Shown: positions 3-24,292, numbered from the stretch's first letter. The stretch is DNA of 52,878 nt from a virus (IMGVR_UViG_3300028550_003611:1-52878); one strand, 5' to 3'. Program-made: numbers and translations. Notes: generated by a model not told the origin, from the letters alone.

Positions 3-3000
3 ACAATTGCATTTATGAAAAATCCAGTTGTTTTAGAAGCCGTTGCTGTAGCAAAAGAATCAATAAATCCTTCTTTACAAAAAGCTATAGTTGGGCCTTC
101 AAAAGGTCAAACTGTAACTGAGATGAAGTCTGAAGACTTAATAGCTTGGGCTAAAGGAGAGAAAGAAATGACTCCCGAAGAAAGAAAGTTGATGCAGGAT
201 AACTTAAGGTTTTTCCACATGAATTCTATTTCTTTAAAGAATTTGTATGACATGGTTACTCCTTTTAAAGTAGATAAGAAGAGTACAATGCATGCTAACA
301 TTGCAATTCTTGATAAATTAAATTTTTATTCTAGTTCTTATGGAACAGGTAGCCAAGAACGACTATGGGGAGGACCTTCTCTTTTAAATAAGTTTATTAC
401 TGGAGATGCGTATCCATCTACAAGAGAGTACTACAAGCATATTAGAAAGAATATTCAGGTAGCAGAGCAATTTGGTCTTATAGGTACACAGCCTGCAGTT
501 ACAGCTGCTAAACGACACATCTTAACTACTGTAGGTAAAGGATTCTTTAATGAGCAAGAGCATAGAGATATGAATTACTCAATTGCTCATTACATTGCTA
601 CAATGCCTGGGTCTCCTATCTTTAATGATGGAGTTGTTTTTGACAAAAATGGGAATGTAACAGAAAGTAATCCAGGTATTATGTCTGAGAGTACTGTGCG
701 TAGAGTTCACCTAGTCCCTGAAGGAAACATTGCTCAAAATCTTGCAACAATTAAAGAGTTGTCAGATTCAGGAAATGTAGCCATTTTAGATCTTATTGAT
801 CCGAAAGAAACTAATATTAATGGGAGAGTTGTGCATTCTGTAACGTTTAATGCTAAGCAATCTAAAGAAGCGTCGGAAAAAAATAGACTTTCTAGAGAGT
901 GGGAGCTTATGATATATGAGCCCGCACTTCTTTTCCCTTCAGCTTCTCCTGAACAATTAGCTATTGTAAAACGATTTGGTAGAGATCTTTTAACAAACGA
1001 GATTATTACTAACGAATTTCGTCCAGGTCCATCTTCTATGTTTGAGTTGATACCTAATAAAATGTTAGACGATTTAGGTATTTCAGAGCATCAATCTAAG
1101 ATTTTAAATAGCTTAGGGGATGCAACATCTCTTTCTGATTTTACAGATAATTTTAATAGTAGTTATGCACTTAGGACGTACGGAGGTAATACATTGTATC
1201 CTAAAGTAAATGGAGATCCTTCCCCAAGTATAATAAAGCAGACATTTCAAAAACATACAGCTATAATTATAGAAGACGCTGCTACTGGTGAAGCTGCAGT
1301 ATACCGTATATCTACAAAAAGAATGCCTGAAAAAGGTAAGACTTATGAGTGGGTAAAAGTTGTCCCTAAAGGATTTAAAGGATACAGTGAGTTAAATGTT
1401 AGAGATGACCGTGGAGCAGATCCATTAGGTAGATCTAAAGGGTTTCTTGCTTTGTCAGCTGTGCCTATAACTAATCCTGCAGAAAGTGATTGGACTCAAA
1501 AAGTAGACTATTCTGGACAACCTGATGGTGTAGTTGGTGTTGAAACTTCTGAAATTAAGAGTGAATGGAATGCTCCTGGACCTACGTTATCTGCTATAGC
1601 TAATAAGACAGATTCTACTCAACAACCTAGTGAGGTTAAAACATTTGATTCACTTGGTAGTGAGCTTGAGTTATTTGGAAATGAAATACAATATAAAGTT
1701 AATGGTTCATTATATGAAGACTATGATACAGCAGAAGAAGCAGCAGAAGCTTTCAAAGCTTTATCTAAACCAACACAACAAAGTAGTAAGAAGACCTTAA
1801 ATAAAGAAGAATTTGAAGAGGCGTCAAGAGCTGCAATGGAAGAGGAAACATTTTCTTCTTTACCTATTGCTGAACAAGTGGAAGCACAGCAAAAAATTGT
1901 TGACGCTATTCGAAGAGAGTTAGATAATGCTGAACAGGGTTTTGATGACTTTAGCAGCATGCTTGCTGAGCAGCTTACAGAATCTTATAATCAAGCTGTT
2001 GAGAAGCTTGCAAAGCTTTCTGCTGAACAAGCAAATAACGAAGGCAGATTATTTTCTAGAGATCTAGGAACAAGTGCTGCAATATCAGAAAGTGCATCTA
2101 ATTCTACACGTAAGGTAAATAAGTTACGTAGAGTGTTTGCAAACGCAGGCATTATGCTTAACATACAATTTAAGTCTTTACCTAAAGGCACAAAAGGTAT
2201 GGTGCAGGGTAAAGAAATACTTTTAGATCCATCTCAACTTACTGAGGATACTGTGTATCACGAGTTTGGGCATATTTTGGTTGACATGCTGCCTGCGGAT
2301 CAGAGGAAGGCGTATGTAGCTATGATAGTGAAAGCCGACCCTGTGTTAGCTGAGATGGTTAGAAAGATGTATCCGGAATTAACTGAAGAGCAGTTAGGAA
2401 CTGAGATACTTGTTACAGCTATTGGAATGGAGGGAGCAAAGTTAGAGAGACAAAATCCTTCACCTATCCAAAAGATAATCAATAAGATTCTTAGGGCACT
2501 TGGTAAGATATTTGGGGTTAGACCTAATGTAGCTGCTGAATTAGCTGAGAAGATGTTTGCTGGGGAGATCAGGGAGCTGTCACTGTCCGGAGTGTTTAAT
2601 ACTAAAGCTCAACAGTCTAGAGACTTGAATGAAGAAATATCAAACTTATCTAGAGATGCTTTAATTGTTCTTGAGTCAGATATAATGAGACTTGAGAGTA
2701 TGCCTGAATCGGATATGCGTAAAAAAGATGTACGCCGTTTGCGGGAGCTCAAGAAGTCTGCTTTAAGATTAAAAGAAAAGAAAGATACATTATCAGTAAT
2801 TTTAGAATTACATGAACATGCAATCGTTCGTATAGACAGAGCTACAAGAGTTTACAATGATGTTCGTGTCAAGATGGACAACTCAGAGAATCTTTCTAAA
2901 GATGAGAAGCTAGAGCTTTTAAATAATATAAATGAAATTAAAGAAGTATTAGATAGCTTGCATGGTAGTAACAACTCTATCCTTAAAAAGATGGAGAGTG

Positions 3001-6000
3001 TAATGAATACTATGTCTCTTAGCGAAGAAGTTGGGGGACCTATATCTGTGATGAGATCTTCTTTACGAGACAGCATCTTTGACTTAGACAGACTAGATCT
3101 TAGCTACAGAGATACTGTTATTCCTCTTATTGCGGAAACTCTTTTAACTTACACTAATGGATCAGTAAGTCCAAAGATTCAAGCTCTTATTGATCATGCT
3201 ATAGCTAATAAGGATATAACCGGTATAAACAGAAAAGATCCTAAGTTTAAAGAACTGCGAGCATCTAAAAAAAATGGTACGTTAACTCAAGAAGATTACA
3301 ATGAAGAACTTCTTAAGTTAAAAATTGAACAGCTAAAAAATAAAATGCCAGAGGTTCAGAACCTGATTGATGAGATGCGTAATGCACACATTGATAAAAG
3401 TGCATTTGCTATGTGGCTAGATCCAATGGTGTATTCTACTGAAGCAAATATTCAGTTATTTTCTCTTGCACTTAAAGATGCTATCTATCAAGGAAACGCA
3501 AAAACTATTGAAGATCTACACGAGGCTGAAGAATTCTACCAAAGATTTAAAACTTTTAAAGGAGGAGACTTTAATGTTAACGAATTTAATAAGGATCTTT
3601 TAGAAGTTTTAGATAGCAGAGATGGGTCTAAGAAAATACTGTCGTTAGTACAAGAGTACGACGTTAAGGACTTCTACTCTAAAAGATCTGCTATGGAGAA
3701 TCAGATTAAAGAAGAGACTGGATGGCCTAAAGATGACAAGGGAGGATTTGTTTACAAAGGAAGTCAAGAGTTTAAAGATTGGCAAAAAACAGTTACAGAA
3801 CTTGAAGACGGTACGAAGAGAATTCTTTACAATGACAAATGGAATCAATACCAAGCAAAGAGAGAGAAGTGGTCGTCTGAAAATACTGTACCTGTAAGAG
3901 GGGCTCAAGAAGCTATAGACAAAATTAATGCTCGTATAGATGAAGTAAACAAAGCTATTGCTCTTATAGGTGAATCTACTTTAGCATCTGATAAAGATAA
4001 ATTATATGCTTTGTATGATGAGTCATCATCATTGGCTGCAGAGAAATCATACTCTTATATATATAACCCTAATACTGGGGGGTACACATTTTCTGGCAGA
4101 CTTGTTAAACCAAATAAATCGTATAGAAATCCTAAGTGGACAGCAATACAAGATAGTCCAGAGCTTAAAGAGTACTATGAGTATGTAATTAACAAGTATC
4201 AAGAGAAGCAAAAGATTACAGGCACAAGAGGTTTAGCGGTTAATGGGTGGGATACGTATTCTTATCAGATGCCTTCAGTTCGTAAAAGCGATATTGAGCG
4301 AGCTCAAAAAAATGGATTAGGTAATACTATATCAGAGCAGGTAAAAAGCTTAGCTACTATAAGAGAAGGAGAAGATGTAGAATGGAGCATGAGACTTGAT
4401 TCTGCAGGAAAGCCTTCTAGAACAGTTCCTCTTTATTACATGAGCTCTATGGATGAGTCTGAAGTTTCTAGAGATGTGCTGTCAAGTGTTTTAACATTTG
4501 GGCATATGTCTCACATGTTTAAAGAAAAGTCTAAGATGTCAGGACTTGTATCTGGGATGCTTAATGCTCATGAAACAAGAGAGACTACTACTGTTAGTTC
4601 TTGGGGAGGATTTGCTAGAGATCAAGTTGCAGAAAAATTAGGGTTTGAAAATACAAAGTCTTCTAGAATAGATCCTAAAAGTAAAAATTTACGTCACCTA
4701 CAAGAATTTATAGATGCTAATTTTTACGGTATGCACAACAAACAAAGTTCCCAGGATATATTTGGGCAGACTGTAGATTTAAACAAAATAGCTGGATCCT
4801 TAACTACTTTAACAGCTCTGAATAGTTTAGCAGGTAATGCTTTGCAAGCAAGTAACCAGCTTATATTCGATAACATGAATACTCATGAAGAAGCTGTAGC
4901 AGGTCAATTCTTTAATAAGTCTGATCATGCATGGGCTGTAGGAACATATGCTTCTGAAGGAGCAGCTATAGGAGACCTTGGTAAATTTGTAGCTAAGTCT
5001 AAGCTTGGTCAAGCTATGTTAATGTTTGATGCTATGATTGATAATACAGAGTCTTTAGGTAAAGACGCAACTAGCAACAAATCTCGTAAACTTGCCAGCA
5101 CAAATACTTTATTTGCTTTACAACATGGTCCTGAGCATCAAACTGCAGGTGTAAGAATGCTTTCTATGATGCGTAATATGAAAGGTAAGTTGCAAGATAA
5201 AAATGGGAAGGTTCTTTTAAATGAAAAAGGTGAAGAAGCAGATCTGTGGGATATGCTCATCAAAAACAAAAAAGGGGTTTTAACTGTAGACCCTAGAGTA
5301 GCTAACTTTAGTACAAGTCAGTTCACTAATAAACTTCATGGTATATCTAAAAGAACTAACCAAATTAAAGGGGCATTTGATTCTCCTATGGCTAAGAGAT
5401 ACCCAGCATTAAAGTTAGCGTTGTTATTTAGGAATTACTTTATACCAGGTTGGAGAAAAAAATGGGGTCACGGTGACGGGTATCATGTTGATCATGAGCT
5501 AGGAGATGTTACAAGAGGTTCATATTTATCTTTCTTTGATATGGTTAAAAATTCTTGGACTACTAGAGCAAATCCTTTTGGTGTTTACAAATCTATGAGT
5601 TTAGTAGATCAACAAAATGTTAAAAGGACTATGTATGAAATGGGGATGTGGACCACAATGGGGTTCCTAGTTTCAGCTTTAACAGGGATGGCGGATGACG
5701 ATGATGATGCTACAGCATACGCAGCATCATTTGGTGCTTACCAAGCAAGAAGATTACAGCTTGAGTTAACGTCTTTTATTAATCCTGTAGAATTATTTAA
5801 GACTTTTGATTCCCCAACAGCTGCGTCTAATATTATAACAAAATACATAGGTTTATTTAAACATACTATTAGTTTTTCAGCACCAAGTGTGCTAGGCTTT
5901 GATGTAGATGATAAAGATTTAAACTACCAAAAAAGAACTGGTCCTAATGAAAAAGGAGACAGTAAGTTTTGGGCTAAGGCTGGTAGAATTGTTCCGTTAC

Positions 6001-6059
6001 TAGAAGGATGGAGATCTACTATGACTCCAGAGGAAAAAATAAAGTGGCTACTCAAGTAA
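3..6059 (+). CDS. Giant (>2000 aa) virion-cargo / virion-RNAP-region polyprotein with central zincin metallopeptidase motif; 5'-truncated
   Basis: Frame is open to the window edge upstream of the ATG at 15. HEFGH (HExxH) at ~2259-2273 with downstream E in 'LGTEILVTAIG'; long helical C-terminus. Size and position at the end of the + strand late block match crAss-like ejected proteins. No RNAP catalytic DxDxD motif seen in the window. Confidence 0.65.
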   Translation, partial: TIAFMKNPVVLEAVAVAKESINPSLQKAIVGPSKGQTVTEMKSEDLIAWAKGEKEMTPEERKLMQDNLRFFHMNSISLKNLYDMVTPFKVDKKSTMHANIAILDKLNFYSSSYGTGSQERLWGGPSLLNKFITGDAYPSTREYYKHIRKNIQVAEQFGLIGTQPAVTAAKRHILTTVGKGFFNEQEHRDMNYSIAHYIATMPGSPIFNDGVVFDKNGNVTESNPGIMSESTVRRVHLVPEGNIAQNLATIKELSDSGNVAILDLIDPKETNINGRVVHSVTFNAKQSKEASEKNRLSREWELMIYEPALLFPSASPEQLAIVKRFGRDLLTNEIITNEFRPGPSSMFELIPNKMLDDLGISEHQSKILNSLGDATSLSDFTDNFNSSYALRTYGGNTLYPKVNGDPSPSIIKQTFQKHTAIIIEDAATGEAAVYRISTKRMPEKGKTYEWVKVVPKGFKGYSELNVRDDRGADPLGRSKGFLALSAVPITNPAESDWTQKVDYSGQPDGVVGVETSEIKSEWNAPGPTLSAIANKTDSTQQPSEVKTFDSLGSELELFGNEIQYKVNGSLYEDYDTAEEAAEAFKALSKPTQQSSKKTLNKEEFEEASRAAMEEETFSSLPIAEQVEAQQKIVDAIRRELDNAEQGFDDFSSMLAEQLTESYNQAVEKLAKLSAEQANNEGRLFSRDLGTSAAISESASNSTRKVNKLRRVFANAGIMLNIQFKSLPKGTKGMVQGKEILLDPSQLTEDTVYHEFGHILVDMLPADQRKAYVAMIVKADPVLAEMVRKMYPELTEEQLGTEILVTAIGMEGAKLERQNPSPIQKIINKILRALGKIFGVRPNVAAELAEKMFAGEIRELSLSGVFNTKAQQSRDLNEEISNLSRDALIVLESDIMRLESMPESDMRKKDVRRLRELKKSALRLKEKKDTLSVILELHEHAIVRIDRATRVYNDVRVKMDNSENLSKDEKLELLNNINEIKEVLDSLHGSNNSILKKMESVMNTMSLSEEVGGPISVMRSSLRDSIFDLDRLDLSYRDTVIPLIAETLLTYTNGSVSPKIQALIDHAIANKDITGINRKDPKFKELRASKKNGTLTQEDYNEELLKLKIEQLKNKMPEVQNLIDEMRNAHIDKSAFAMWLDPMVYSTEANIQLFSLALKDAIYQGNAKTIEDLHEAEEFYQRFKTFKGGDFNVNEFNKDLLEVLDSRDGSKKILSLVQEYDVKDFYSKRSAMENQIKEETGWPKDDKGGFVYKGSQEFKDWQKTVTELEDGTKRILYNDKWNQYQAKREKWSSENTVPVRGAQEAIDKINARIDEVNKAIALIGESTLASDKDKLYALYDESSSLAAEKSYSYIYNPNTGGYTFSGRLVKPNKSYRNPKWTAIQDSPELKEYYEYVINKYQEKQKITGTRGLAVNGWDTYSYQMPSVRKSDIERAQKNGLGNTISEQVKSLATIREGEDVEWSMRLDSAGKPSRTVPLYYMSSMDESEVSRDVLSSVLTFGHMSHMFKEKSKMSGLVSGMLNAHETRETTTVSSWGGFARDQVAEKLGFENTKSSRIDPKSKNLRHLQEFIDANFYGMHNKQSSQDIFGQTVDLNKIAGSLTTLTALNSLAGNALQASNQLIFDNMNTHEEAVAGQFFNKSDHAWAVGTYASEGAAIGDLGKFVAKSKLGQAMLMFDAMIDNTESLGKDATSNKSRKLASTNTLFALQHGPEHQTAGVRMLSMMRNMKGKLQDKNGKVLLNEKGEEADLWDMLIKNKKGVLTVDPRVANFSTSQFTNKLHGISKRTNQIKGAFDSPMAKRYPALKLALLFRNYFIPGWRKKWGHGDGYHVDHELGDVTRGSYLSFFDMVKNSWTTRANPFGVYKSMSLVDQQNVKRTMYEMGMWTTMGFLVSALTGMADDDDDATAYAASFGAYQARRLQLELTSFINPVELFKTFDSPTAASNIITKYIGLFKHTISFSAPSVLGFDVDDKDLNYQKRTGPNEKGDSKFWAKAGRIVPLLEGWRSTMTPEEKIKWLLK

Positions 6060-6069: not shown

Positions 6070-6100
6070 AAAAAAAGGGGACGTTAGTCCCCTTTCTTTT
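6070..6100. terminator. Bidirectional intrinsic terminator between convergent gene blocks
   Basis: AAAGGGGAC-GTTA-GTCCCCTTT hairpin, A-run on the left and T-run on the right, between stops at 6059 (+) and 6100 (-). Confidence 0.9.
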
Positions 6101-6873
6101 TACAACGTTTTAAGAGCTGGTTTATAATATTCAGCATCGAAACCTTCTGTTTTTAAATCAGGTTTACTATGCAACTCAGTGCCTTCAGCTAATTCAACAC
6201 CAATCTTTTCCTCTAAAGAATGTTTTAAGTATTTGCTTTTAAACAGTATCTGACCTGTCTGGCCATCTGCTGCAAAATCATGAAAACTTAATATCTTTAA
6301 CTTCCACATATCGTCTATCTCAGAATATTTCCCATTTACAAAAGACTCGTATGAATCTTGTGCTTCTTTGGGGACATCAAAGATGAACATTACATGATTA
6401 GGATCTGGGTCAAATCTTTCTCTAAAGGTTCTAAATGAACACAATGCAGATTCAAATTTAAGAAACAACATATCTCCAGAGTATCTATAAAGAAGAGCTA
6501 TGCAATTTTTGTGTTCTTCTGTTTGTATAAATGCATTTACAAATAAAGAATCCCACATAAATAGTCTTCTATTTCCCCCAAGAAGTGGGAGAATAAAGAT
6601 ACTACTGTCTGTTAAAGCTGCTGTTATCAAATCATAGCATACAACTTTGTTATCAAATGTTCCTTCTACTATCTTATTTACTTTGTAAGGAGAACTAGGT
6701 GTAACCCTTACGGTTTCACCAATAGCAATTTCAAAAGGTCCTGCTTCTCCAGTACATTCAATAGAAACAATCTCATTGTTTTCTTGTGTAGGCTTGCATC
6801 CTAAAATGTCTCCTAACAATCGCACAGTTCTCCCATTCTGGGGTATCATTGTAGTTATAGGGACTTTTACCAT
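6100..6873 (-). CDS. Hypothetical protein (257 aa)
   Basis: Long ORF overlapping the upstream gene end; no motif recognised. Confidence 0.7.
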   Translation of the reverse strand: MVKVPITTMIPQNGRTVRLLGDILGCKPTQENNEIVSIECTGEAGPFEIAIGETVRVTPSSPYKVNKIVEGTFDNKVVCYDLITAALTDSSIFILPLLGGNRRLFMWDSLFVNAFIQTEEHKNCIALLYRYSGDMLFLKFESALCSFRTFRERFDPDPNHVMFIFDVPKEAQDSYESFVNGKYSEIDDMWKLKILSFHDFAADGQTGQILFKSKYLKHSLEEKIGVELAEGTELHSKPDLKTEGFDAEYYKPALKTL

Positions 6874-7655
6874 AGCTCAGTTTGATTAGGGTCTATTTCT
6901 TCTAGCTCTAAGGAATGTACTTCTAGCTTCGGGAGAGTTAATCCTGTAGCTTTCTTAATATCTTCCTTTGTACGCAACATGTACACTAGATTAAATGTTT
7001 CATAGAATTTATGAATTCCTTCAATCATACCAAACTTTTCGACATACTTTTTTACAGTAAAACTTTCGAAATCTTGAGTTCGACCTTTCAACCAATTGTC
7101 TGCTGTCTTTTCTCCAACACCTGGTAACCCAGGAATACCATCTACAGCATCCCCCATAAGAGTTTGCTTCCAAAGAAACCTATTGGCATCTTCATTAGAT
7201 GTGTGGAGGAATTCGGCAGTTCTATAATTGTAATGCATACCTACACATTGATGTAACACATCTTTATCAGGAGAACAAATAACTGTTTTTCTTTTCTCTA
7301 TGTGAGAATAGTAACTAACTAAGTCATCTGCTTCTAATTCAGAAATACTAATACAATGATATACTTGACGTAAATGCTGCTCAAGAGCATAAAAGATAAT
7401 AGGCTTAGGTCTCCCTTTTCTATTATTTTTATAACTCTCAGCAACAGCATATCTAAAACATCTTCCCTTAGTTAAAAATCCTGAGAATTTGTCTGTATTA
7501 CATTGTTCAAGGATATGATCTATACGTTTGTCAAGACTGTCAATAGCCTCTTCTAACGTAGGTTTACCCATTTCATAGTATATAAGAGAATCAGCATCTA
7601 TTAAACAGATGCTTTCATTTTTTGGAAATCTAGTTACATCAGACATCAATCGCAA
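6867..7655 (-). CDS. 5'-3' exonuclease / flap endonuclease (PolI-N, T7 gp6-like)
   Basis: Motifs LIDADSL, YKNNR, EADD, SPDKD and the H3TH GDAVDGIPGLPGVGEKTA. Confidence 0.9.
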   Translation of the reverse strand: MRLMSDVTRFPKNESICLIDADSLIYYEMGKPTLEEAIDSLDKRIDHILEQCNTDKFSGFLTKGRCFRYAVAESYKNNRKGRPKPIIFYALEQHLRQVYHCISISELEADDLVSYYSHIEKRKTVICSPDKDVLHQCVGMHYNYRTAEFLHTSNEDANRFLWKQTLMGDAVDGIPGLPGVGEKTADNWLKGRTQDFESFTVKKYVEKFGMIEGIHKFYETFNLVYMLRTKEDIKKATGLTLPKLEVHSLELEEIDPNQTELW

Positions 7656-8790: not shown

Positions 8791-8793
8791 TGG

Positions 8794-11553: not shown

Positions 11554-11572
11554 GATTTAATTATTTAAAATG

Positions 11573-14353: not shown

Positions 14354-14364
14354 GTTATTTTTAA

Positions 14365-15063: not shown

Positions 15064-15065
15064 TA

Positions 15066-15197
15066 TTATCTATTAGTTTTCATAATGTCAAAAGCATTAT
15101 AGTTTATACGTAAATATTCAAACCAATCTTTATATTTAGGTTTTGCAACAGCCTTTGCTTTTTTTACAGGCTTTTTAGGACTTTTTTTTCCTTTCAT
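15066..15197 (-). CDS. Small basic protein (43 aa; not in the ORF track)
   Basis: Manual translation MKGKKSPKKPVKKAKAVAKPKYKDWFEYLRINYNAFDIMKTNR; fills the gap and its stop lies 2 nt before the next ATG. Confidence 0.55.
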   Translation of the reverse strand: MKGKKSPKKPVKKAKAVAKPKYKDWFEYLRINYNAFDIMKTNR

Positions 15198-16651: not shown

Positions 16652-16656
16652 ATCAA

Positions 16657-17001: not shown

Positions 17002-18172
17002 TGTTAAAATGTGTTGTGAGATCTGTGTCTCGGTTTATATTATTTAATCCTTTAATAGCATTGTTAAGCCATTTTTCTTCTTGAGAGTCTTTTACATATA
17101 GGATATAGATCTTACCGATCTTATCCCCATCTTTTCTAATAAGTCTACCGATACGCTGTATCATAGATAAAGCCTTACTATCTAGCCCAGCTATAATCCC
17201 AACCTCTGCATTCTTTACATCAAATCCTTGGTTGAGAGCTTTAGTTGAACATAGTACATTGATATCCCCGTTTCTAAAAGCTTCTAACGTTTTTTCACGT
17301 TGTTTCTTAGTTTTTCTACTGTGATACACAGCCGAGTTATCAATACAATCACACATTAAGTCTGTAAAATCATTAGAGCCTGCAAAGGTTAGTATCTTGG
17401 AATTATGATAGTGATTAACTATTTCTACAGCTTTATCTATTTTATGCTCAGCATGTTGTACCACATGCTTTCTTTTACGAATAGCGTTATAAAACTGAGC
17501 AGCTGCACCTTTGTTTCCTGACATTTTACCTGATAGTATCATTTGAGCATTTTGAAATGCATTGAACCCACCAAGAATGTATTTCATTCTTACAAATAAA
17601 GTATTAGCAGCTTTATAATCTCCTTGTTCTTCTTCTGTAAGTGACACAGGTACACAGTATACTTCGTAAGGAGCTACTAATCCTTTATCTACACACACAT
17701 CTAAGGATATAGTATATACAGGTTTAGCTAAGTTTACAAGTACAGCTTTGTACTCATCTTCTTCTGGGAGAGTAGCTGTTAAGCATAGTATCCTTTCAAA
17801 AGAATTCTGAGTAAAGAACTTCCTATATATAGGGCTAAGACCTAAGTGAACCTCATCACATACTACAATACAATACTCCTCATCAAATAGTTTGTGAGCT
17901 GATTGATAGCATATGATTTGAATTCTATCTAGATATTCTGCGTATCCCCATTTAATAAATTCTTCTTCAAACTGATCTTGCAATTGATTTGTAGGTACAA
18001 GTACAAGAGCATCCAAAGTAGTATCTTTCTTAAGAGAATTAACAGCAGCCATAACACCCACCCTAGACTTCCCAAAACCAGTACCAGCAATAACGCTACC
18101 TTTATATCCGGCACTAGCCCAAGAGTTGAGGGCTTTACGCTGTTCCTCATCTTTTACTTTAATTATATCCAT
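16991..18172 (-). CDS. Superfamily 2 DEAD/DEAH-box helicase
   Basis: GTGFGKS, DEVH, LTAT, LNQGFD and QRIGR motifs. Confidence 0.9.
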   Translation of the reverse strand: MDIIKVKDEEQRKALNSWASAGYKGSVIAGTGFGKSRVGVMAAVNSLKKDTTLDALVLVPTNQLQDQFEEEFIKWGYAEYLDRIQIICYQSAHKLFDEEYCIVVCDEVHLGLSPIYRKFFTQNSFERILCLTATLPEEDEYKAVLVNLAKPVYTISLDVCVDKGLVAPYEVYCVPVSLTEEEQGDYKAANTLFVRMKYILGGFNAFQNAQMILSGKMSGNKGAAAQFYNAIRKRKHVVQHAEHKIDKAVEIVNHYHNSKILTFAGSNDFTDLMCDCIDNSAVYHSRKTKKQREKTLEAFRNGDINVLCSTKALNQGFDVKNAEVGIIAGLDSKALSMIQRIGRLIRKDGDKIGKIYILYVKDSQEEKWLNNAIKGLNNINRDTDLTTHFNNAC

Positions 18173-18186
18173 TGTTTCTTAAATTA

Positions 18187-18435
18187 TTATCTGTCATCAT
18201 CAGGATTATACCTGCCACCTCCTTCTTTTTCATATCTTATTAAAAGATTTTCTAATCGATATTGATCTTCAAGACGTGGTACAGTGCATTTAATATTAAT
18301 AATATTAATATTGTCAATTTCAGGAGGCTCATCGTGAGAACCTGAAAACCCAGGAGCATATTCATATTCTATTTCTAAAACAAAGCCTGCAAGGTTTTCT
18401 CCTTCTGTTTCTAATTCATACGTGTTTAAACTCAT
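18187..18435 (-). CDS. Hypothetical acidic protein
   Basis: ORF in operon. Confidence 0.6.
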   Translation of the reverse strand: MSLNTYELETEGENLAGFVLEIEYEYAPGFSGSHDEPPEIDNINIINIKCTVPRLEDQYRLENLLIRYEKEGGGRYNPDDDR

Positions 18436-18437
18436 AG

Positions 18438-18902
18438 TTAATAGGTTTTAGGTAATAATGCTGCCTGTATTTTAATATCGTTTGCTAACTCAGACATTTT
18501 AGATTGCAAAACATTAAACTCCGCTTCTAATTTTTGAAGCTCAACACATTGAGTGTCTATGGAATCATGTACAGTTGCTGCAGTGCTGTTAGCATACATA
18601 CCTGCTACAGCAGAATACATACGCCTATACTCTGCTTCATGCATATGAGTTGAATGTAATTTCTCGTAATGCATCATAGTCCCATGATCTTTGTTTAGTT
18701 CTTTTGCTACGGCATATAATGTAATTTTTGTGTGGTTTCGTAATAAATTGACAAGGATTTTCCTTGCATCTACTGTAGTTCGTCTACTACATTTCATTAT
18801 TAATCTGGCTTTTGAGACACCAGTTATTTCCTCTATCATGCGATACACAGATTCTACTGTTTCTTGCATATGAGGATTTAAGTCTTCTGTTGCTCTTCCC
18901 AT
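18438..18902 (-). CDS. DnaA domain IV-like HTH protein with C-terminal coiled coil
   Basis: RRTTVDARKILVNLLR...AVAKELNKDHGTMMH resembles the DnaA C-terminal signature (AR...IG..F.RDHTTV.H). Confidence 0.7.
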   Translation of the reverse strand: MGRATEDLNPHMQETVESVYRMIEEITGVSKARLIMKCSRRTTVDARKILVNLLRNHTKITLYAVAKELNKDHGTMMHYEKLHSTHMHEAEYRRMYSAVAGMYANSTAATVHDSIDTQCVELQKLEAEFNVLQSKMSELANDIKIQAALLPKTY

Positions 18903-18913
18903 GGTGGTTAATT

Positions 18914-19156
18914 TTAAATTATATCTTTTAATTCTTCCTCAATAGTATCGTCTATGACTTGTATAACTTTGTTTACTAGTATACTTACGTCATTAGCTAC
19001 CTCTACTGTTAATACTTTATCTAATTCCTTAGATATACCATTAATACTATGTCTCATTTTATGTTTAAACCGTGTTTCTCCTACGGTTTCATCTAATAAT
19101 TCTTGTAGTAATAATGCTGCGGCAAATATTTTTAATTCTAGATTATCTTGCTTCAT
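18914..19156 (-). CDS. Hypothetical protein
   Basis: ORF in operon. Confidence 0.6.
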   Translation of the reverse strand: MKQDNLELKIFAAALLLQELLDETVGETRFKHKMRHSINGISKELDKVLTVEVANDVSILVNKVIQVIDDTIEEELKDII

Positions 19157-19332
19157 AACTGTCCCATTGAATTAGATCTAAAACTTGCACATCCTGTTTT
19201 AGGAGTTTTTAAATCCATATACTCACCACATTCACATTGAACGTCGTGCCTTACTTTGTCTTCAATTACTTTGATAGTTACACCATTTTGAGGTTTTTCT
19301 GCCTTACACTTAGGGCATATAAAATCAATCAT
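19153..19332 (-). CDS. Small zinc-ribbon protein (59 aa; not in the ORF track)
   Basis: Manual translation MIDFICPKCK...VQCECGEYM...; ATGA overlap with the downstream gene. Confidence 0.65.
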   Translation of the reverse strand: MIDFICPKCKAEKPQNGVTIKVIEDKVRHDVQCECGEYMDLKTPKTGCASFRSNSMGQL

Positions 19333-19441
19333 CTTGTTCCCCAGTTATAAATTCACAGTGCTCCAGACAATCTGGGCATATACCCATTTCGGTATCGATG
19401 GTGGATGCTCCACAGCAGTCACTAAATATTTCTTCTTCCAT
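19325..19441 (-). CDS. Tiny Cys-rich protein (38 aa)
   Basis: MEEEIFSDCCGA...GICPDCLEHCEF; this ATG immediately follows the upstream stop. Confidence 0.65.
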   Translation of the reverse strand: MEEEIFSDCCGASTIDTEMGICPDCLEHCEFITGEQDD

Positions 19442-19442
19442 G

Positions 19443-19631
19443 TTAGTATATAGTTGTTGGGAACCATTTCTCATCAATTTGAGTTGATAGCCCGGTGTGA
19501 AAAGATTCAACAATCCATAGACCACGGCCTACTTTTTCTATTAACTCAACTTGCTCTGCAGCAAGTTCATTTGGGACATCCATATCGTCTGTTAACTCGA
19601 TGACATCACCTACTTCATATATTATCTTCAT
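19443..19631 (-). CDS. Hypothetical protein (SH3-like pattern)
   Basis: YEVGDVIEL start; ATGA overlap with the polA stop. Confidence 0.6.
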   Translation of the reverse strand: MKIIYEVGDVIELTDDMDVPNELAAEQVELIEKVGRGLWIVESFHTGLSTQIDEKWFPTTIY

Positions 19632-21517
19632 TTTTCCCAGGTTTTAGAAATGTTTGTGTCTGCTTTAAGCAAACCGTTAGGGATAACAACTTTAGCAGCT
19701 GTTTCCATTAATTCAGTCATTATTTTTTTCCATTTATCAGCGTATTCTTCCTCACAAATAGTATCTATCTGATCGTGTACAGTCATTATAATCTTAACAG
19801 GAAGATTATCTTTTTTAATCTTGTTATGAATATATATAAGTGCTAATTTTGTCATGTCAGCACTTGATCCTTGAATTGGGGTGTTTTTAGATGCTCTTTC
19901 AATTGACCCAAACTCTGCACCTTTATCAGAATACATTTTTGGATACCAATTGTCAAACCATCGTCGTCTTTTAAATGGTTTAAACGTACGTATATAACCG
20001 TTCTTAACCCCAAACTCCCCAAGTTTATCTAAAAATCCTTTGATAGATGGGAAAGCTTTAAAGTATTGTGTGATAAGAGCTTTAGCTTCTGTCATAGATA
20101 CCCCAATAGTTTCAGACAATTTCTTAGGGCCCATACCATAAGCAAGGCCAAAGTTAACTGTCTTTACATTTGTTCGTAATAACTTATGCTTAGGGCAATT
20201 ACATTTTTCTTTTGAAGACATGTATTTACAATCTTCTTCAGCAGAATTTGCCCATTTATCTCCATATACAAGGTCAGCACATACTGAATGAAGGTCTTGT
20301 CCTTGCTCTAATGCTTTTAACCACACTGGATCTTGACTACCGTAAGCAATAACATTAAGCTCTTGAGATGAATAATCTGATGATACAAATACCCATCCTT
20401 CAGGTGCTAAGAAACAGTTCCTGTATATATTATTCCCAGGTATCTGTTGCATATTAGGTTTACTAGAAGACACTCTCCCGGTGTCAAGTATTTGAGAGAA
20501 GTTAGTATGAATTTTATTGTCAGCCTTATTTAGATATTTAAAGAATTGTTCGCCATAAGCTGCTGATAATTTAGCTTGCTCTTTGTATTGAATATATCTT
20601 TTAATTATCTCATTCTTTTTGTGCTTAAGCAAGTTCTTACCGTTAACATCTTCAAGTTCTGGTATCATGTTCTGAAATAGTCGTAGTACTTGACTTGGGG
20701 AATTCCAGTTTATATATGTATTCTTAACATTGTTTGAAAACAAATCTCCTTGAATAGGGAGATTATATTTCTGCAATTGAGGGTGACTTACAACAGCATT
20801 ATCTAATACCTGAATACTTTCAAAAGTTTTCTTAGTATTTATATCAGATAATCCTAACCATCTTTTTTGGTCTAACAGAATACCTTCGTATTCTATTTCA
20901 GAGAATACTATTACTGCTTTGTTTTCCAAATCTGTAACAGCTTCAAGATTTAAGTTTTTAATCTCAACTAATTGCTTTTCTCGTATGCTGATTAAATACA
21001 AGACATCCATTGCCCCGTATTCAATTTGCGAATAAGTAAAAGGTCTCCCTTGTAAATTAAGAAATGAGTTGCGTTCTTCCTTGCTAAGTGTTATATCAAG
21101 ACGTCGAGATAATGTGTTAGCTAGAGATACACTCATTGATGCTTTCCCGCATGTAATTAGCTTTTCTTGTAGCATAGTATCACACACGTTAACTAAATCA
21201 GCCCCAACCCATCTCTTGATGAACTTGTAATCGAACTTAGCGTTATGCAATACCTTAACGATGTTAGGGTTCTCAATAACACCGCGTAGATCACTGATGC
21301 TAACCTCTCTTGTGTCAATAACAAACTGTGTGTCTTGATCCCCAATCTGGAACATAGTCATTCTATCGTTTAGGAAATCAAATCCCTCGGTCTCTGTATC
21401 AATAGCCAATACTGTCTTACTGTTGCAATAGTTTATGCAGGTCTGCAGCGAACAATTATGATAGTGATTAGACGTTTGAATAGATTTGTTACCGATGAAT
21501 TTGATATTTGGTTTCAT
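19628..21517 (-). CDS. polA: Family A DNA polymerase with 3'-5' exonuclease
   Basis: Exo DTETEG, HNAKFD, YGAMD; TGRVSS..PNMQQIP; motif A DYSSQEL; motif B KTVNFGLAYG; NTPIQG; motif C VHDQ. Confidence 0.95.
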   Translation of the reverse strand: MKPNIKFIGNKSIQTSNHYHNCSLQTCINYCNSKTVLAIDTETEGFDFLNDRMTMFQIGDQDTQFVIDTREVSISDLRGVIENPNIVKVLHNAKFDYKFIKRWVGADLVNVCDTMLQEKLITCGKASMSVSLANTLSRRLDITLSKEERNSFLNLQGRPFTYSQIEYGAMDVLYLISIREKQLVEIKNLNLEAVTDLENKAVIVFSEIEYEGILLDQKRWLGLSDINTKKTFESIQVLDNAVVSHPQLQKYNLPIQGDLFSNNVKNTYINWNSPSQVLRLFQNMIPELEDVNGKNLLKHKKNEIIKRYIQYKEQAKLSAAYGEQFFKYLNKADNKIHTNFSQILDTGRVSSSKPNMQQIPGNNIYRNCFLAPEGWVFVSSDYSSQELNVIAYGSQDPVWLKALEQGQDLHSVCADLVYGDKWANSAEEDCKYMSSKEKCNCPKHKLLRTNVKTVNFGLAYGMGPKKLSETIGVSMTEAKALITQYFKAFPSIKGFLDKLGEFGVKNGYIRTFKPFKRRRWFDNWYPKMYSDKGAEFGSIERASKNTPIQGSSADMTKLALIYIHNKIKKDNLPVKIIMTVHDQIDTICEEEYADKWKKIMTELMETAAKVVIPNGLLKADTNISKTWEK

Positions 21518-21699
21518 GTGCTTGAATTTAAATGTTTCATCATAATAATTAATGATGCCTCTGCTTGTTGCAGTGTTAAGGTTCTACCTCTAAAGTTTAT
21601 TTCTGTTTCTCCTTTGTGCTTAGCCTTGTTAATTGCAGCCTTAAAGCTATAGTATTCTTGGTCTTCTATGAGACCAAATAAGTATTTCATTTTCCCCAT
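21514..21699 (-). CDS. Hypothetical protein
   Basis: Short ORF overlapping the polA start. Confidence 0.6.
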   Translation of the reverse strand: MGKMKYLFGLIEDQEYYSFKAAINKAKHKGETEINFRGRTLTLQQAEASLIIMMKHLNSST

Positions 21700-21743
21700 T
21701 AGTTCTACGTTTGAATAAAGTGTGTTTGAATGTATGCCATAAT

Positions 21744-21797
21744 AAAAAAGGGGGAACAGAAAGAGAGAATGCGTTACTCTCTGACTGTTCCTTTCCC
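21744..21797 (-). terminator. Intrinsic terminator (long bulged stem)
   Basis: Minus strand GGAACAG-TCA-GAGAG...CTCTC-TTT-CTGTTCC followed by CCCTTTTTT, just after the stop at 21825. Confidence 0.75.
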
Positions 21798-21824
21798 TTC
21801 CTTATTTTGCATCGTTAACCAATT

Positions 21825-22424
21825 TTACGATGCAAGGCCTGTATTAGCTACGTTAACCTTTGGGTTAGCTGGCGATGATTGTGTCCCAACTGATTTGTTT
21901 GGGTCTACAAAGCTATGCTCAACTAAACCTGCCGATGTCAACTTAGTGTGACGATAGACAGGCATTAGTGCCCCATTGATTGGGTTAACAGCTGTTACGA
22001 TTTCCCCTGTTTTAGGGTTAACCTTTGGAGTCTGACTTGTAGAATAAGGATTCTTTGTGAAGTTTTCTGTGACTTCGACTCCTGTGTCTACTATAGTTCC
22101 GTCTTCCATAGTATAGAGAATGTCAGCAAAATGCTGTGGAGCACCTGGTGCAGTGCAATCCCCTATTGTACTCCCAAGTAACTCTGCAATTCTGTCTGCA
22201 TTGTAAGAGCGAATAGCCGTTACATTGGTTGTATTACCATAGCCTTGTGAGCCTTGCTCAATGCTAATGAGTACGTCTTCAACAGAATTGTTTGAAGTAG
22301 GTTTCTCTACTTGCTGCTGAAATTGTACGCTACACTGATTCTTATCGCTGTTTTGGTTGAACCACCACTTGCGAATAACTACTTTGCCTGTTTCGAGGCT
22401 TGTTTGATAGGAAGTATTTCCCAT
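21825..22424 (-). CDS. Hypothetical early protein (199 aa)
   Basis: Long ORF with AT-rich leader and its own terminator. Confidence 0.7.
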   Translation of the reverse strand: MGNTSYQTSLETGKVVIRKWWFNQNSDKNQCSVQFQQQVEKPTSNNSVEDVLISIEQGSQGYGNTTNVTAIRSYNADRIAELLGSTIGDCTAPGAPQHFADILYTMEDGTIVDTGVEVTENFTKNPYSTSQTPKVNPKTGEIVTAVNPINGALMPVYRHTKLTSAGLVEHSFVDPNKSVGTQSSPANPKVNVANTGLAS

Positions 22425-22571
22425 GATTGAAAATAAATTAAATGTTGGATATGTTGAAGAGGCCCATATCCTTAGCCTTGTATTGCGATTATGATAGTGA
22501 TGACATCGGGAGAGAGATGCTCATCTTGCATCTTTTAAGATAACTCTCCGTTTGTCCATCACTATATAGAT

Positions 22572-22733
22572 TTAGTGGTAAGCTGCACAATTAGCTGTGT
22601 CAGGGTTACCGTATACGTTAGTTGCCTTAGTTGATGAACAACCAAATAGACAAAATATTGCAAGGCTAATGCCTAATATAAACATCGTGATTGATGCAAA
22701 CTTAAACCGAGGTGAGTCTGTATTTTGTATCAC
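22572..22733 (-). CDS. Small predicted lipoprotein (53 aa; not in the ORF track)
   Basis: GTG start overlaps the upstream TGA; ...FILGISLAIFCLFGC-SSTKATNVYGNPDTANCAAYH has a hydrophobic stretch plus lipobox-like LFGC. Confidence 0.55.
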   Translation of the reverse strand: MIQNTDSPRFKFASITMFILGISLAIFCLFGCSSTKATNVYGNPDTANCAAYH

Positions 22734-22927
22734 GATAGTTTAGATTGAGTGTCAAGTGTTTCTACAATTAGCTCAAGTTTAGATTCTTCTTGATGTAGCG
22801 CATTTACTTCTTTGCGTATTTGAGTAATTCTGTTTAGTGCAGCATCTCGTAAATCTTTTTGATTATCTATATGCTGCTTGTAATCCTGTTGGATTGCTGT
22901 TAATTGAATGTTTGCTTCTTGATACAT
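22730..22927 (-). CDS. Small coiled-coil protein
   Basis: Heptad-like Q/L/E pattern. Confidence 0.6.
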   Translation of the reverse strand: MYQEANIQLTAIQQDYKQHIDNQKDLRDAALNRITQIRKEVNALHQEESKLELIVETLDTQSKLS

Positions 22928-23035
22928 TTTGTTTGGCTTTAAAGAATTAGTTATTGTAACAGCTAAGGATTCTATCCTTTTCTTCGCTGTAGTATAGTTC
23001 GTAAGTATAATCGTCAGTTTCGTCTTCCATAATGA

Positions 23036-23419
23036 TTAGAATTGTCCGTAGTCCATATTGTCAAGAGCATTTGCTTGAAATGCTTTAGTGATATTGCAAT
23101 TAGTTTTAGTTAGAATAGGGTCAGAGTGAATTGTTTCTTCAGCCTCTTCAAATCTTAGTCTCTTTTGTTCTTCCACTAAATCTTCGTGGTCTTGTTGTGA
23201 CCAGCCTTTCTCAGGTTGTTTCTCGCTCATGCTTGTTAAGAATTGGTCTAACTCGTTAGCTATGTCAGATGCTGTAAGAGATTTTCTTGGGAATTCTTGT
23301 TTAATTGTTTCCTCGAGGTCAGCTATGTAAAGCCCTAGTCTTGCAACTGTTTCGGTTAGCTCTGCATTTTGTAGTTTTAGTTCTGTTATTAGAACGTTGT
23401 CGGATTTAGAATGGTCCAT
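23036..23419 (-). CDS. Hypothetical acidic coiled-coil early protein
   Basis: ORF with AT-rich leader. Confidence 0.6.
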   Translation of the reverse strand: MDHSKSDNVLITELKLQNAELTETVARLGLYIADLEETIKQEFPRKSLTASDIANELDQFLTSMSEKQPEKGWSQQDHEDLVEEQKRLRFEEAEETIHSDPILTKTNCNITKAFQANALDNMDYGQF

Positions 23420-23454
23420 AATGTTATAGAGTTTAATATAGTGAGAATGCCATA

Positions 23455-23640
23455 GCCTGAATTAGGGAGGAATGTATGCTTGAATAGATTGGTACGCATG
23501 CATACACGTTTGCCTTATCCTAAGCCTATTGCCATGACGATGTATCGCTATGGTCTTTGATTGAGGCCTGAATAGATTGATTGATTGCCTGAATAGAATG
23601 CCTAACTGCCATTCGAATATGATAGTGATTAGCCTGAGTG
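23455..23640. repeat. Cluster of short direct repeats GC(C/T)TGAATAGA(T/A)TG
   Basis: Copies at 23478-23491, 23566-23579 and 23587-23600; partial GCCTGA copies at 23455 and 23632. Confidence 0.7.
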
Positions 23641-23678
23641 TTTGTTTGCCTGTCTGTGATTGACTTGTTAACGATTGC

Positions 23679-23705
23679 AAAAAAGGGCCAGCGTAATGCT
23701 GACCC
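23679..23705 (-). terminator. Intrinsic terminator
   Basis: Minus strand GGGTCAGC-ATTAC-GCTGGCCC-TTTTTT, just after the stop at 23712. Confidence 0.85.
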
Positions 23706-23711
23706 AGTTTC

Positions 23712-24095
23712 TTATTTCGGTCCGTGATAATATTCTTCATCACTCATCTGTCCCTCATCCCATTGACACCAACGATCATGCTCTTCAGCTTTTAGCTTAG
23801 CATAATAGTTGGCTTCTCCAAAATAAGCGTTGAACATTTCAACAACATCTGGAGACAGAAGACAACAGTTCTCGACATCAAAGTTATCATCGAGTCTATG
23901 CACTACCGATGCAAAGGTCTCGATAGTTGCCTCAAGGTCTGCCTTCACCTCTCCCTCGTACTCCTCACGTGCAGACTGCTCTTCATTGTAAGAGATTTTT
24001 TCTTTAAGAAGAGCGATATACTTATCACTAACCTCCTTAAGCATTGCCTTCACTTCCGAGAGTTCTTTCTCGAGTGAGTATGTGCGATAGCTCAT
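23712..24095 (-). CDS. Hypothetical acidic early protein
   Basis: ATGA-coupled ORF followed by a terminator. Confidence 0.7.
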   Translation of the reverse strand: MSYRTYSLEKELSEVKAMLKEVSDKYIALLKEKISYNEEQSAREEYEGEVKADLEATIETFASVVHRLDDNFDVENCCLLSPDVVEMFNAYFGEANYYAKLKAEEHDRWCQWDEGQMSDEEYYHGPK

Positions 24096-24292
24096 AATGA
24101 TAGTGAGTTAAACTCTCTAAGTAGTCTACCAGCACGAGTGTGTGACCCTCCTGTAGAGAACTTATGATTAGGAGCAAGCTTAGTGAGAAAGTCAAGAAAC
24201 TTACCTATCGTAATGAACCTGTAGTTACGAGCGACAGTTAAGAAGTCGTCACTAAACAGTTCAGCGTGTGTGAGGATGTGCTTGCGTCTCAT
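24092..24292 (-). CDS. Hypothetical protein
   Basis: ATGA overlaps at both ends. Confidence 0.6.
   Translation of the reverse strand: MRRKHILTHAELFSDDFLTVARNYRFITIGKFLDFLTKLAPNHKFSTGGSHTRAGRLLREFNSLSL

Follow-up and report, generated by a model that had tools for sequence, protein, structure and literature searches.

A strand-polarised ten-base word in the early region of a marine crAss-like phage: putative core of an early promoter or polymerase loading site

Why should one ten-base word recur in a single orientation through the early genes of a phage, even within protein-coding sequence? The window analysed here is the whole of a 52,878-nt record, classed as linear in IMG/VR, with a CheckV completeness of 62%, so that about 38% of the genome lies outside it. 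An earlier note on this DNA had placed TCACTATCAT at 2322, 10909, 17405, 21458, 22491, 23619 and 24097, always in the same direction, and all seven are exact minus-strand copies (Table 1). The plus strand, proposed there as a check, contains none, and copies with one mismatch are absent from both strands of the window. TCACTATCAT is the most frequent 10-mer in the record; from dinucleotide shuffles 0.17 exact copies would be expected, and none of 100 reached seven. The codon-preserving shuffle suggested in the same note gave a comparable outcome, as 300 synonymous-codon shuffles within genes left a mean of 2.46 copies (including the two fixed intergenic ones) and a maximum of 5, versus the 7 seen. 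Codon usage and amino-acid sequence do not account for the motif count.

Four of the copies (10909, 17405, 21458 and 22491) extend to TCACTATCATAAT, as had been reported. Only ten columns are invariant across the seven copies, while the best copies have 16–17 bases in common, with preferred flanks of (T)AA before the word and A(A/T)T after it; the flanks of copy 7 fit this consensus least well. The 25–53 kb part of the window contains no copy, and the gaps between copies grow away from ~25 kb (478, 1128, 1033, 4053, 6496 and 8587 bases), both in agreement with the earlier description; the early region likewise has none in its first 0.9 kb. The heptamer TCACTAT, previously taken for a partial copy, does precede the ORFs starting at 24902 and 23419, but it is not kept in the relative L210 and, being found 10 times versus 11.0 expected, is not enriched. 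The reverse complement of the word codes D-D-S-D, which is frequent in acidic repeats, and most of the 64 loci returned by a pair scan are coding repeats of this kind.

Table 1. Positions of the motif copies and associated features in the window.
Feature	Position	Strand	Remarks
Early (replicative) module	6100..25025	-	Carries 6 of 7 copies, in the direction of its genes
Giant ORF, incomplete	3..6059	+	Converges on early module
Copy 1	24097..24106	-	Last codons of ORF 24092-24292, read S-L-S
Intrinsic terminator	23685..23705	-	8-pair stem and T run; ends the unit before copy 2
Non-coding stretch	23420..23711	-	Terminator, copy 2, three to four CTATTCAGGC-type direct repeats
Copy 2	23619..23628	-	Intergenic; ~200 non-coding bases after it; kept in L210
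Copy 3	22491..22500	-	Intergenic; 66 bases ahead of ATG at 22424
Leader, copy 3 to ATG	22425..22490	-	Hairpin GGATATG...CATATCC
Copy 4	21458..21467	-	Within PolA near codons 18-20, NHYHNC
DnaA domain IV-like helix-turn-helix protein	18438..18902	-	PF08299, E 5.8e-9, 38.4 bits
Copy 5	17405..17414	-	Within SF2 helicase, NHYHNS, residue 254, variable loop
ParB/DUF433-like protein	13922-14353		Second example of a candidate operator-binding protein
Copy 6	10909..10918	-	Within RIIA, VHYHNT, residue 212
Copy 7	2322..2331	-	Antisense within convergent plus-strand giant ORF 3-6059

The early module encodes PolA, an SF2 helicase, a DnaB-like helicase, a primase, an AAA_24 ATPase, and a resolvase, as well as a flap nuclease, RIIA/RIIB, and small ORFans. 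Copy 1 lies one base ahead of the ATG of ORF 23712-24095, and copy 2 lies 47–57 bases downstream of the strongest intrinsic terminator on the minus strand, in a non-coding stretch that is partly kept in L210. Copy 3 is kept in the relative L209 and has decayed to TCACTATTAC in L210, and the leader that follows it is almost invariant in both. Copy 4 is 50 bases after the PolA start codon, in a variable N-terminal stretch, and is kept in L209 and L210, while copy 5 is kept in L213. At the RIIA site of copy 6, relatives have V(H/Y)Y(E/V)(P/D)T; a strong terminator upstream of RIIA (11601-11575) is followed by no motif copy before the start codon. Copy 7 has the same polarity as the others. The regions around the sites are unstructured: single-strand DNA folds of the seven sites contain no common hairpin, and six fold no better than shuffles (z-scores +0.6 to -0.85), the exception being 23619 (-2.8), where the stem is downstream of the word. 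No Rfam family matched in 21–30 kb.

The HYHN readings in RIIA, the helicase, and PolA, which had suggested a constraint on the DNA rather than on the proteins, were confirmed, and comparison with relatives supports that suggestion. In five orthologous comparisons all 50 motif bases are identical, versus a 17.2% mismatch in the 300-base flanks (P about 8e-5); on this evidence the motif is kept at the DNA level. HYH occupies variable protein segments: it occurs in 4 of 18 aligned PolA sequences (the window and homologues at 90%, 82% and 79% identity), in one of the relatives' helicase segments listed, and in none of the 22 RIIA segments listed. In the relative L214 (PolA 66%), the word is found elsewhere in the same helicase gene and is again read NHYH. 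The word has been written into tolerant protein loops, at positions that turn over between lineages. Among nearer relatives, 76 of 80 loci lack an exact copy, and one locus contains four NCACTATCAT copies.

A second clade of crAss-like phages, also marine and distantly related, has the same word in the same layout. From this clade, the complete crAss-like genome G007 (70.8 kb) encodes a TerL, a portal, and an MCP that are 27%, 25.5% and 24% identical to those of the window. All seven copies in G007 are on a single strand, and the first two fall within the divergent intergenic region that heads the early module. With four more near-complete genomes (7:0, 0:4, 4:0 and 4:0), the total is 26 copies at a strand ratio of 26:0. 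In 27 loci of this clade (DnaB 65–100%), the early-gene strand carries all 52 copies, and 21 of the loci have at least one. Intergenic sites make up 24 of the 45 unique ones; an ATG follows the word by 0–1 base at 18 of the 45 (background 4.7%), and a hairpin with a T tail ends 0–20 bases upstream at 4 (background 0.7%). The 18 sites with an abutting ATG fall into about six orthologous groups, and many of these ATGs open only 8–24 codons. In this clade the ten conserved bases are joined by positions -2/-1 (R, T).

Some second-clade copies lie outside the early genes and retain their polarity. The G007 copies at 5340 and 16392 are antisense within late genes, and the copies of G011 at 20576 and 26035 lie 8–13 kb past its cluster of five, the latter inside a minus-strand late gene homologous to window ORF 51891-52877. 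At a clade-wide antisense site, 10 of 10 bases are invariant in nine sequences, as are 3 of 3 third-codon positions inside the word and 9 of 40 outside it. The window and G007 share the DnaA domain IV-like protein (28% identity) and few other early proteins, and for the window's giant virion protein the matches (33–35%) are to its own family, not to G007 or G011. Shine-Dalgarno sequences are scarce in both (2 of 40 genes in the window, 0 of 52 in G007), and a DUF5675 protein common to both clades is 65% identical, which hints that their hosts may be similar.

Fragments of the motif are avoided elsewhere in the genome. In 500 codon shuffles with the motif sites held fixed, 3.55 one-mismatch copies were expected and 0 found (P 0.022), and neither the 46 two-mismatch copies (67 expected) nor the 12 seven-base sub-words (32 expected) were matched by a count as low in any of the 500. 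Under a Markov-4 model, 22.5 sub-words are expected (P 0.012). For the same sub-words in 80 relatives (1.12 Mb), observed/expected is 1.0–1.07 under Markov-4 and up to 1.08 under Markov-3. G007 contains 13 sub-words versus 34.3 expected and, on the opposite strand, 2 versus 13.5, the avoidance there being at least as strong.

The earlier note offered three interpretations, namely promoter or loading sites for the virion-delivered RNA polymerase, stations for transcription-coupled DNA entry, and sites for a phage DNA-binding protein. Of the three, the promoter or loading reading has the strongest support because of the confinement to the early module, the polarity, the terminator, the start codon, and the conserved leader, and it gains further support from the second clade, where the word heads the early module, follows terminators, and abuts ATGs. 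The placement of the motif is promoter-like in two clades. We give about even chances that TCACTATCAT forms the core of a promoter of the early class or of a site where polymerase loads; the virion RNA polymerase named in the same proposal would be its putative reader. DNA-entry stations would fit the copies that keep their polarity although they are antisense in convergent late genes.

Phage polymerases offer several precedents. T7-group promoters have ~23 conserved bases spanning the start site. As in that group, a short, near-invariant, strand-specific word is repeated here through one transcription class, also inside upstream genes, in one direction and abutting a start site that is putative in this case; its first seven bases may resemble the T7-group promoter core. 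Unlike that group, the conserved stretch is 10–16 bases rather than about 23, the late genes have no copy, and a search for a T7-like polymerase (Pfam PF00940), run without a positive control, gave no match at E<=1 in the 62%-complete window or in G001 and none in five near-complete second-clade genomes. In N4, transcription by the virion RNA polymerase also aids DNA entry, and the early promoters of that enzyme are hairpins at three clustered sites. The sites described here are likewise near the first-entering end and would serve a virion-delivered polymerase and early genes, but there are seven over 22 kb.

A closer precedent is phi14:2, in which the whole replicative module is an early class transcribed by the rifampicin-resistant virion RNA polymerase gp66, and for which the authors found no motif shared by the sequences upstream of gp66-dependent 5' ends (10.1101/2020.03.07.982082). 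The window resembles it in having the replicative module on one strand and the modules for gene expression and for the capsid on the other, and in the long non-coding stretches near the head of the early module, which are known to be transcribed in phi14:2 (10.1101/2020.03.07.982082). The C-terminal third of the giant ORF also resembles phi14:2 g065, annotated as an RNA polymerase associated protein, and the relative of this ORF in G005 is a 4084-residue frame. Neither DFDxD nor D[FYWLIVM]DxD was found in window ORFs of more than 1000 residues, among which the giant ORF is cut by the end of the 62%-complete record. The two differ in the common word: no such motif was found upstream of the early 5' ends in phi14:2, and a single copy is present in the first 50 kb of that genome. 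Thermus phage P23-45 has a two-barrel virion RNA polymerase fused to the tape measure, with A+T-rich promoters, and a strongly conserved short motif upstream of mapped pre-early starts that is found only in relatives with that polymerase (10.1101/2022.12.01.518664). A short conserved motif is common to both cases, and pairing with a two-barrel virion polymerase would be the counterpart here; the two systems are unrelated in phage group, motif, and host, and the starts are mapped there while the present sites are known from sequence. A sigma-70-type scan of 6–25.5 kb for two-block host primary-sigma promoters, using a consensus other than the Bacteroidota type, gave 72 hits versus 67.4 in shuffles and none at the seven copies.

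Several observations do not sit comfortably with a promoter. Four of the seven copies are deep inside ORFs (PolA, mid-helicase, RIIA, and the antisense copy at 2322), and a promoter so placed cannot serve the gene that holds it. One 10-mer is common to clades that are ~25% identical in capsid genes and share no specific virion-protein module, and such patchiness is not easily explained by a co-evolving phage polymerase; a host factor or mobile reader would fit. Given the intragenic copies, the motif-less phi14:2, and the lack of a common virion-protein module, a polar signal for machinery other than RNA polymerase is possible, if unlikely. Chi, Ter, and T5 nick sites are polar words read by non-transcription machinery, and the word could be a Ter-like one-way fork barrier, a T5-like strand-specific nick site, or a Chi-like signal restraining a host exonuclease that comes in at the early end; it would be read either by a factor that the hosts of both clades share or by a phage protein outside this record. 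Like those sites, the word has strict polarity along the genome axis, matches exactly at all seven window sites, and is independent of local gene direction (window 2322; G007 5340 and 16392; G011 26035). Copies thin out with distance from one end, DNA-level constraint acts on the clade-wide antisense site, and the clades have the word in common but no specific early protein, with the hints of similar hosts noted above. Unlike the window word, Chi, Ter, and T5 nick sites are not known to be tied to terminators or start codons, and a polar signal predicts neither those associations, nor the restriction of most copies to the early module, nor the avoidance of partial copies on both strands. Chi words are short and G-rich, unlike this ten-base A+T-rich word, and among the early ORFs searched there is no nickase-type domain, only a DUF1064/resolvase-like nuclease. 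G010, a 5.8-Mb MAG holding a phage-like contig, contains 12 copies, about chance level.

The both-strand avoidance would suit a duplex-binding protein, and the word could comprise operator sites through which a phage protein regulates or organises the early region, which we consider quite improbable. The 18438-18902 protein, named earlier as a possible reader, does clear the Pfam cut-off for a domain that reads 9–10 base asymmetric sites, and it is one of the proteins common to the window and G007. It is a weak candidate because the 62 of 86 relatives' loci in which it was found are nearly all without the motif; moreover, its D-H-(S/A/G)-T recognition stretch is kept in 16 of 16 aligned sequences, whether or not the lineage bears the motif. 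The word does not match the DnaA box, which is neither enriched nor clustered (15 found with at most one mismatch, 16.05 expected), and simple binding gives no reason for ratios of 7:0 and 52:0. An element acting in early transcripts as UCACUAUCAU, such as a processing site, small-RNA target, or translation-start signal, would agree with the six sense copies, with sites in leaders as well as coding sequence, with unstructured surroundings in the window, and with the abutting ATGs. We nevertheless hold it to be very improbable, as 0–1 base is too short a distance for a ribosome-binding element, early sense RNA is unexpected at conserved antisense copies in late genes unless through read-through, the opposite strand is avoided at least as strongly, and the Rfam search over 21–30 kb was negative. 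Finally, the HYH frame common to three genic copies and the D-D-S-D repeats in most pair-scan loci could point to chance, composition, or protein-level convergence. This explanation is next to impossible: it is contradicted by the shuffle expectation, the codon shuffles, the 50 identical bases with their conserved synonymous positions, and the strand ratio of the second clade, and three copies lie outside coding sequence or are read in a different frame.

We therefore return to the early promoter or loading site as the preferred reading. In the early replicative module the word would occupy the non-template strand, with RNA synthesis beginning at it or immediately downstream and proceeding the way the early genes point. 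We infer both this start and the identity of the reader, which would be a phage-directed RNA polymerase. By analogy with phi14:2, and considering the g065 homologue, the favoured candidate would be the virion-delivered crAss-type enzyme.

The ten-base word TCACTATCAT occurs seven times in the window (at 2322, 10909, 17405, 21458, 22491, 23619, and 24097), always on the minus strand and never on the plus strand, which confirms both the positions and the strict polarity reported in the earlier note. Dinucleotide shuffles predict only 0.17 exact copies, and the word is the commonest 10-mer of the window; the best copies share a stretch of 16–17 bases (TAATCACTATCATAATT at 17405 and 21458). As had been claimed, it is read as HYHN in RIIA, the SF2 helicase, and PolA. 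In a codon-preserving check of 300 synonymous shuffles a mean of 2.46 copies remained, two of these being the fixed intergenic ones. Partial TCACTAT copies had also been noted ahead of two ORFs, but these are not conserved in the close relative L210, and the 7-mer is not enriched. Two further words are polar (GATATACTT, 8:0, and TTTACAAA, 12:0); both are spread through coding sequence without a common context and were rejected as signals of the same kind.

The window derives from a marine crAss-like phage, with a terminase, portal, and major head protein that match crAss-type PHROGs, the last being 29% identical to that of crAss002 and related gut phages. The record is classed as linear with a completeness rating of 62%, so 38% of the genome is missing. 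Its module layout is that of phi14:2, a crAss-like phage with a virion RNA polymerase (gp66). The replicative module encodes PolA, SF2 and DnaB-like helicases, a primase, an AAA_24 ATPase, a resolvase-like nuclease, a flap nuclease, RIIA/RIIB, a DnaA domain IV-like protein, and small ORFans, while the C-terminal third of the giant ORF resembles phi14:2 g065, annotated as an RNA polymerase associated protein. Shine-Dalgarno sites precede 2 of 40 genes and one gene contains a type IX secretion sorting domain, both of which point to a Bacteroidota host. No tRNA genes were found in the window, and neither an Rfam search of 21-30 kb nor blastn of 7.7 kb against 50,697 phage records returned a match. 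The last ORF (51891-52877) is open at the record end, and the first (3-6059) continues its frame; since relatives of the last ORF form a separate gene of 352–370 residues and the counterpart of the first in G005 is a 4084-residue frame, the record is probably not a closed circle.

Coordinates of the modules and of motif copies with a distinctive setting in the window
Feature	Position	Strand	Setting
Replicative module	6100-25025	minus	gene content in the text
Capsid genes	from 29765	plus	
Giant ORF, truncated	3-6059	plus	converges on the replicative module
Copy 24097	24097	minus	one base ahead of the ATG of ORF 23712-24095
Copy 23619	23619	minus	after the strongest minus-strand terminator (23705-23685)
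Copy 22491	22491	minus	at the head of a 66-base leader, nearly invariant in the close relatives L209 and L210
Copy 2322	2322	minus	polarity kept; antisense inside the convergent giant gene

The four copies other than 22491, 23619, and 24097 lie inside ORFs, and no hairpin common to the motif sites of the window was found. Copy 23619 is followed by ~200 non-coding bases with CTATTCAGGC-type repeats. The non-coding stretch after this copy (23440-23660, minus strand) holds three to four CAATCTATTCAGGC-type direct repeats, with more in L210, which could be origin iterons or belong to a non-coding RNA of the sort that is abundant early in phi14:2. The head of the early region consists of ~150 non-coding bases (24903-25052, minus strand) that are 88% identical to L210 and hold a CTGTAC...GTACAG hairpin; as they include no motif copies, something other than the motif must start the first early unit. 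Directly upstream of copy 22491 is an unannotated 36-codon ORF (22574-22684, minus strand) with a lipoprotein-type signal (a cysteine after LFG). Two contigs of run X2 abut at 22494/22495, inside this copy; contigs of three other runs span the sites, and the break is taken as chance.

Selection acts on the motif at the level of DNA. Six close relatives (PolA identity 59–91%) were obtained from a metagenome scan, and in them orthologous copies are kept at 21458 (L209 and L210), 22491 (L209), 23619 (L210), and 17405 (L213). Of the orthologous motif bases compared, 50/50 are identical, against a flank mismatch of 17.2% (P ~8e-5; the comparisons are not fully independent), and the HYH residues fall in variable stretches of protein. 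Copy 22491 has decayed to TCACTATTAC in L210. In L214 (PolA 66%), the word occurs ~470 bases away in the same helicase gene, where it is read as NHYH and the window has DEEY; this displacement indicates that motif position turns over.

The genome avoids near-copies. In codon shuffles that left the seven sites intact, one-mismatch copies of TCACTATCAT number zero against 3.55 expected (P 0.022), two-mismatch copies 46 against 67, and seven-base sub-words 12 against 32, the latter two values being as low in 0 of 500 shuffles. Under a Markov-4 model 22.5 sub-words are expected (P 0.012). Across 80 relatives (1.12 Mb), the observed/expected ratio for sub-words is 1.0–1.07 under Markov-4 and up to 1.08 under Markov-3.

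A scan of IMG/VR for two copies 240–270 bases apart returned 64 loci, mostly tandem or domain repeats within coding sequence, but also G007, a complete 70.8-kb genome whose seven copies all lie on a single strand. G007 is crAss-like but only distantly related to the window (TerL 27%, portal 25.5%, and MCP 24% identical); neither PolA nor the giant ORF of the window has a match in it, and it has Shine-Dalgarno sites at 0 of 52 genes. Its motif architecture is the same as that of the window: copies 1–2 occupy the divergent intergenic region heading the early module, three more are distributed along the module, and two (5340 and 16392) lie beyond it, antisense in late genes. Avoidance of sub-words is even stronger than in the window (13 found, 34.3 expected). 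The first copy is followed by a small lipobox ORF that resembles the one just upstream of copy 22491 in the window.

The clade of G007 (27 loci, DnaB 65–100%) contains 52 copies, all of them on the strand of the early genes, and four more near-complete genomes show counts of 7:0, 0:4, 4:0, and 4:0. Over 45 unique sites, of which 24 are intergenic, R and T at -2 and -1 are added to the consensus. An ATG follows the word by 0–1 base at 18 of the 45, against a background of 4.7%, although these 18 reduce to about six sets of orthologs and the ORFs are often short. A hairpin with a T tail ends 0–20 bases upstream of four of the 45 (background 0.7%). One antisense late-gene site is invariant in nine sequences, with third-codon positions fixed at 3/3 inside it and 9/40 outside.

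In the window's own family the word is rare. Of 80 IMG/VR loci (PolA 55–62%), 76 contain no exact copy and four contain one; phi14:2 has one copy in its first 50 kb. One locus, L131, carries four NCACTATCAT copies in the 3.4 kb upstream of PolA, all on the strand of the early genes. Other lineages have their own repeated words abutting early ATGs (L205/L207, at 13-3985 of L205, and L194, at 4556-5864): TGGATAATATATAT-ATG, with five occurrences and an ATG after 5/5, and AAGACTAAG-ATG, with five occurrences and an ATG after 4/5. These may be lineage-specific counterparts of the motif. A survey of 9-mers in the 80 relatives was too noisy to reveal such analogues, as in 61 loci some 9-mer occurs in at least four copies to 0. 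In the motif-less loci L139, L140, L142, and L174, homologues of gene 21825-22424 have tRNA genes upstream and are also preceded by a G+C-rich hairpin with a T-rich tail. Many family contigs (L132, L136, L137, L141, L144, L171, L178, L179, L191, and others) end 1.2–3.6 kb upstream of PolA, including three near-complete linear ones of 83–88 kb, which suggests a physical genome end or a hard-to-assemble region near window 23.4-25 kb. PolA relatives at 76% identity are found on contigs of ~84 kb.

A 16-mer scan of IMG/VR gave mostly single chance matches and led to G001 (IMGVR_UViG_3300030117_004523, 45.9 kb), an unrelated phage with nine exact copies of the 10-mer on one strand (record positions 10517-21549; loci L082, L125, and L126). 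In this phage the local genes lie on the strand opposite the word, whose complement ATGATAGTGA is sense and encodes (T/K)DDS(D/E) close to or at the C-terminal ends of consecutive early proteins, 13–31 bases ahead of the next start codon and just before that gene's ribosome site. Shine-Dalgarno sites precede 20 of 38 genes, so the host uses them, and sub-words are not avoided in G001 (28 found, 30 expected). The antisense setting, coding tails, Shine-Dalgarno use, and unavoided sub-words tell against the same phenomenon, and the motif in G001 is probably a different signal. Among the papers listed in a literal text search for the 10-mer, none concerns phages.

Confinement to the early module, taken together with polarity, promoter-like placement (after terminators, at the module head, and abutting start codons), exact conservation despite turnover of position, and genome-wide avoidance of near-copies, argues for a promoter of a specific polymerase. 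The phi14:2 study (10.1101/2020.03.07.982082) assigns the whole replicative module to an early class transcribed by virion RNA polymerase gp66, and by analogy the polymerase available when infection begins would be a virion enzyme here as well. The absence of any such motif from phi14:2 weakens the promoter reading, as do the intragenic location of four of the seven copies, the position of RIIA behind a terminator with no copies between, and the occurrence of the word in two clades that show no specific relationship in their virion proteins, but not in most of the closer relatives. We give an even chance to the motif being an early-class promoter or loading site, and less than that to any particular identity of its reader. 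This patchy occurrence, together with the conserved antisense copies, leaves room for two alternatives: a host-encoded reader, or a polar signal that is followed along the axis of the genome and would serve DNA entry, fork direction, or exonuclease control. In a further reading, which we consider rather unlikely, the word is more than a gene promoter: a polar track running from the first-entering end along the axis of the genome, maintained even where it is antisense to late genes. It would be read by an ejected virion polymerase that reels in DNA or by a host factor. Such a host factor would be shared by the hosts of both crAss-like clades, whose capsid genes are only ~25% identical; in that case one host's unrelated phages would have acquired the same ten-base signal by convergence or exchange.

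Phage-encoded candidates for the reader were also considered. The DnaA domain IV-like protein is found in 62 of 86 relatives' loci searched, with its recognition stretch conserved in 16/16 aligned; being so widespread and conserved, it is a poor explanation for a lineage-specific word. A search for a T7-like polymerase, run without a positive control, gave no match in the window or in five near-complete genomes of the G007 clade. The 761-residue ORF 25053-27338 was rejected as a polymerase, with no Pfam or PDB sequence match; of its six relatives four share only part of it (14–36% of the query), three of these being N-terminal-type matches (41–81% identity), a pattern that suggests a modular tail-fibre-like protein. 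For the early ORFan 24510-24902 (130 residues), two true relatives were found among 1.84 billion representatives, the protein atlas gave no usable match, and the AlphaFold model has a mean pLDDT of 45.5.

The tail-fibre-like ORF belongs to a block of late-looking genes (25053-29389, minus strand) that shares the early module's strand and lies upstream of it; the block also encodes the type IX sorting-domain protein and a DUF5675 protein. The latter is 65% identical between the window and G007, far above the ~25% of the capsid genes. A relative of the type IX secretion-tagged protein (69% identical) is encoded by L281 (WLWP01000006.1, 61.6 kb), which has no motif array of the window's kind; it lies in a MAG labelled Pseudomonadales and probably comes from a crAss-like phage, binned with the bacterial genome.

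A sharply defined, conserved, and strictly polar ten-base word marks the early module in two marine crAss-like clades, and provides a practical marker of that module and its orientation in uncultured genomes. Its patchy spread over distant clades raises the question of whether the reader is the phage's or the host's, and the word allows a direct test of whether initiation by the virion enzyme, or by infected-cell extract, takes place there.
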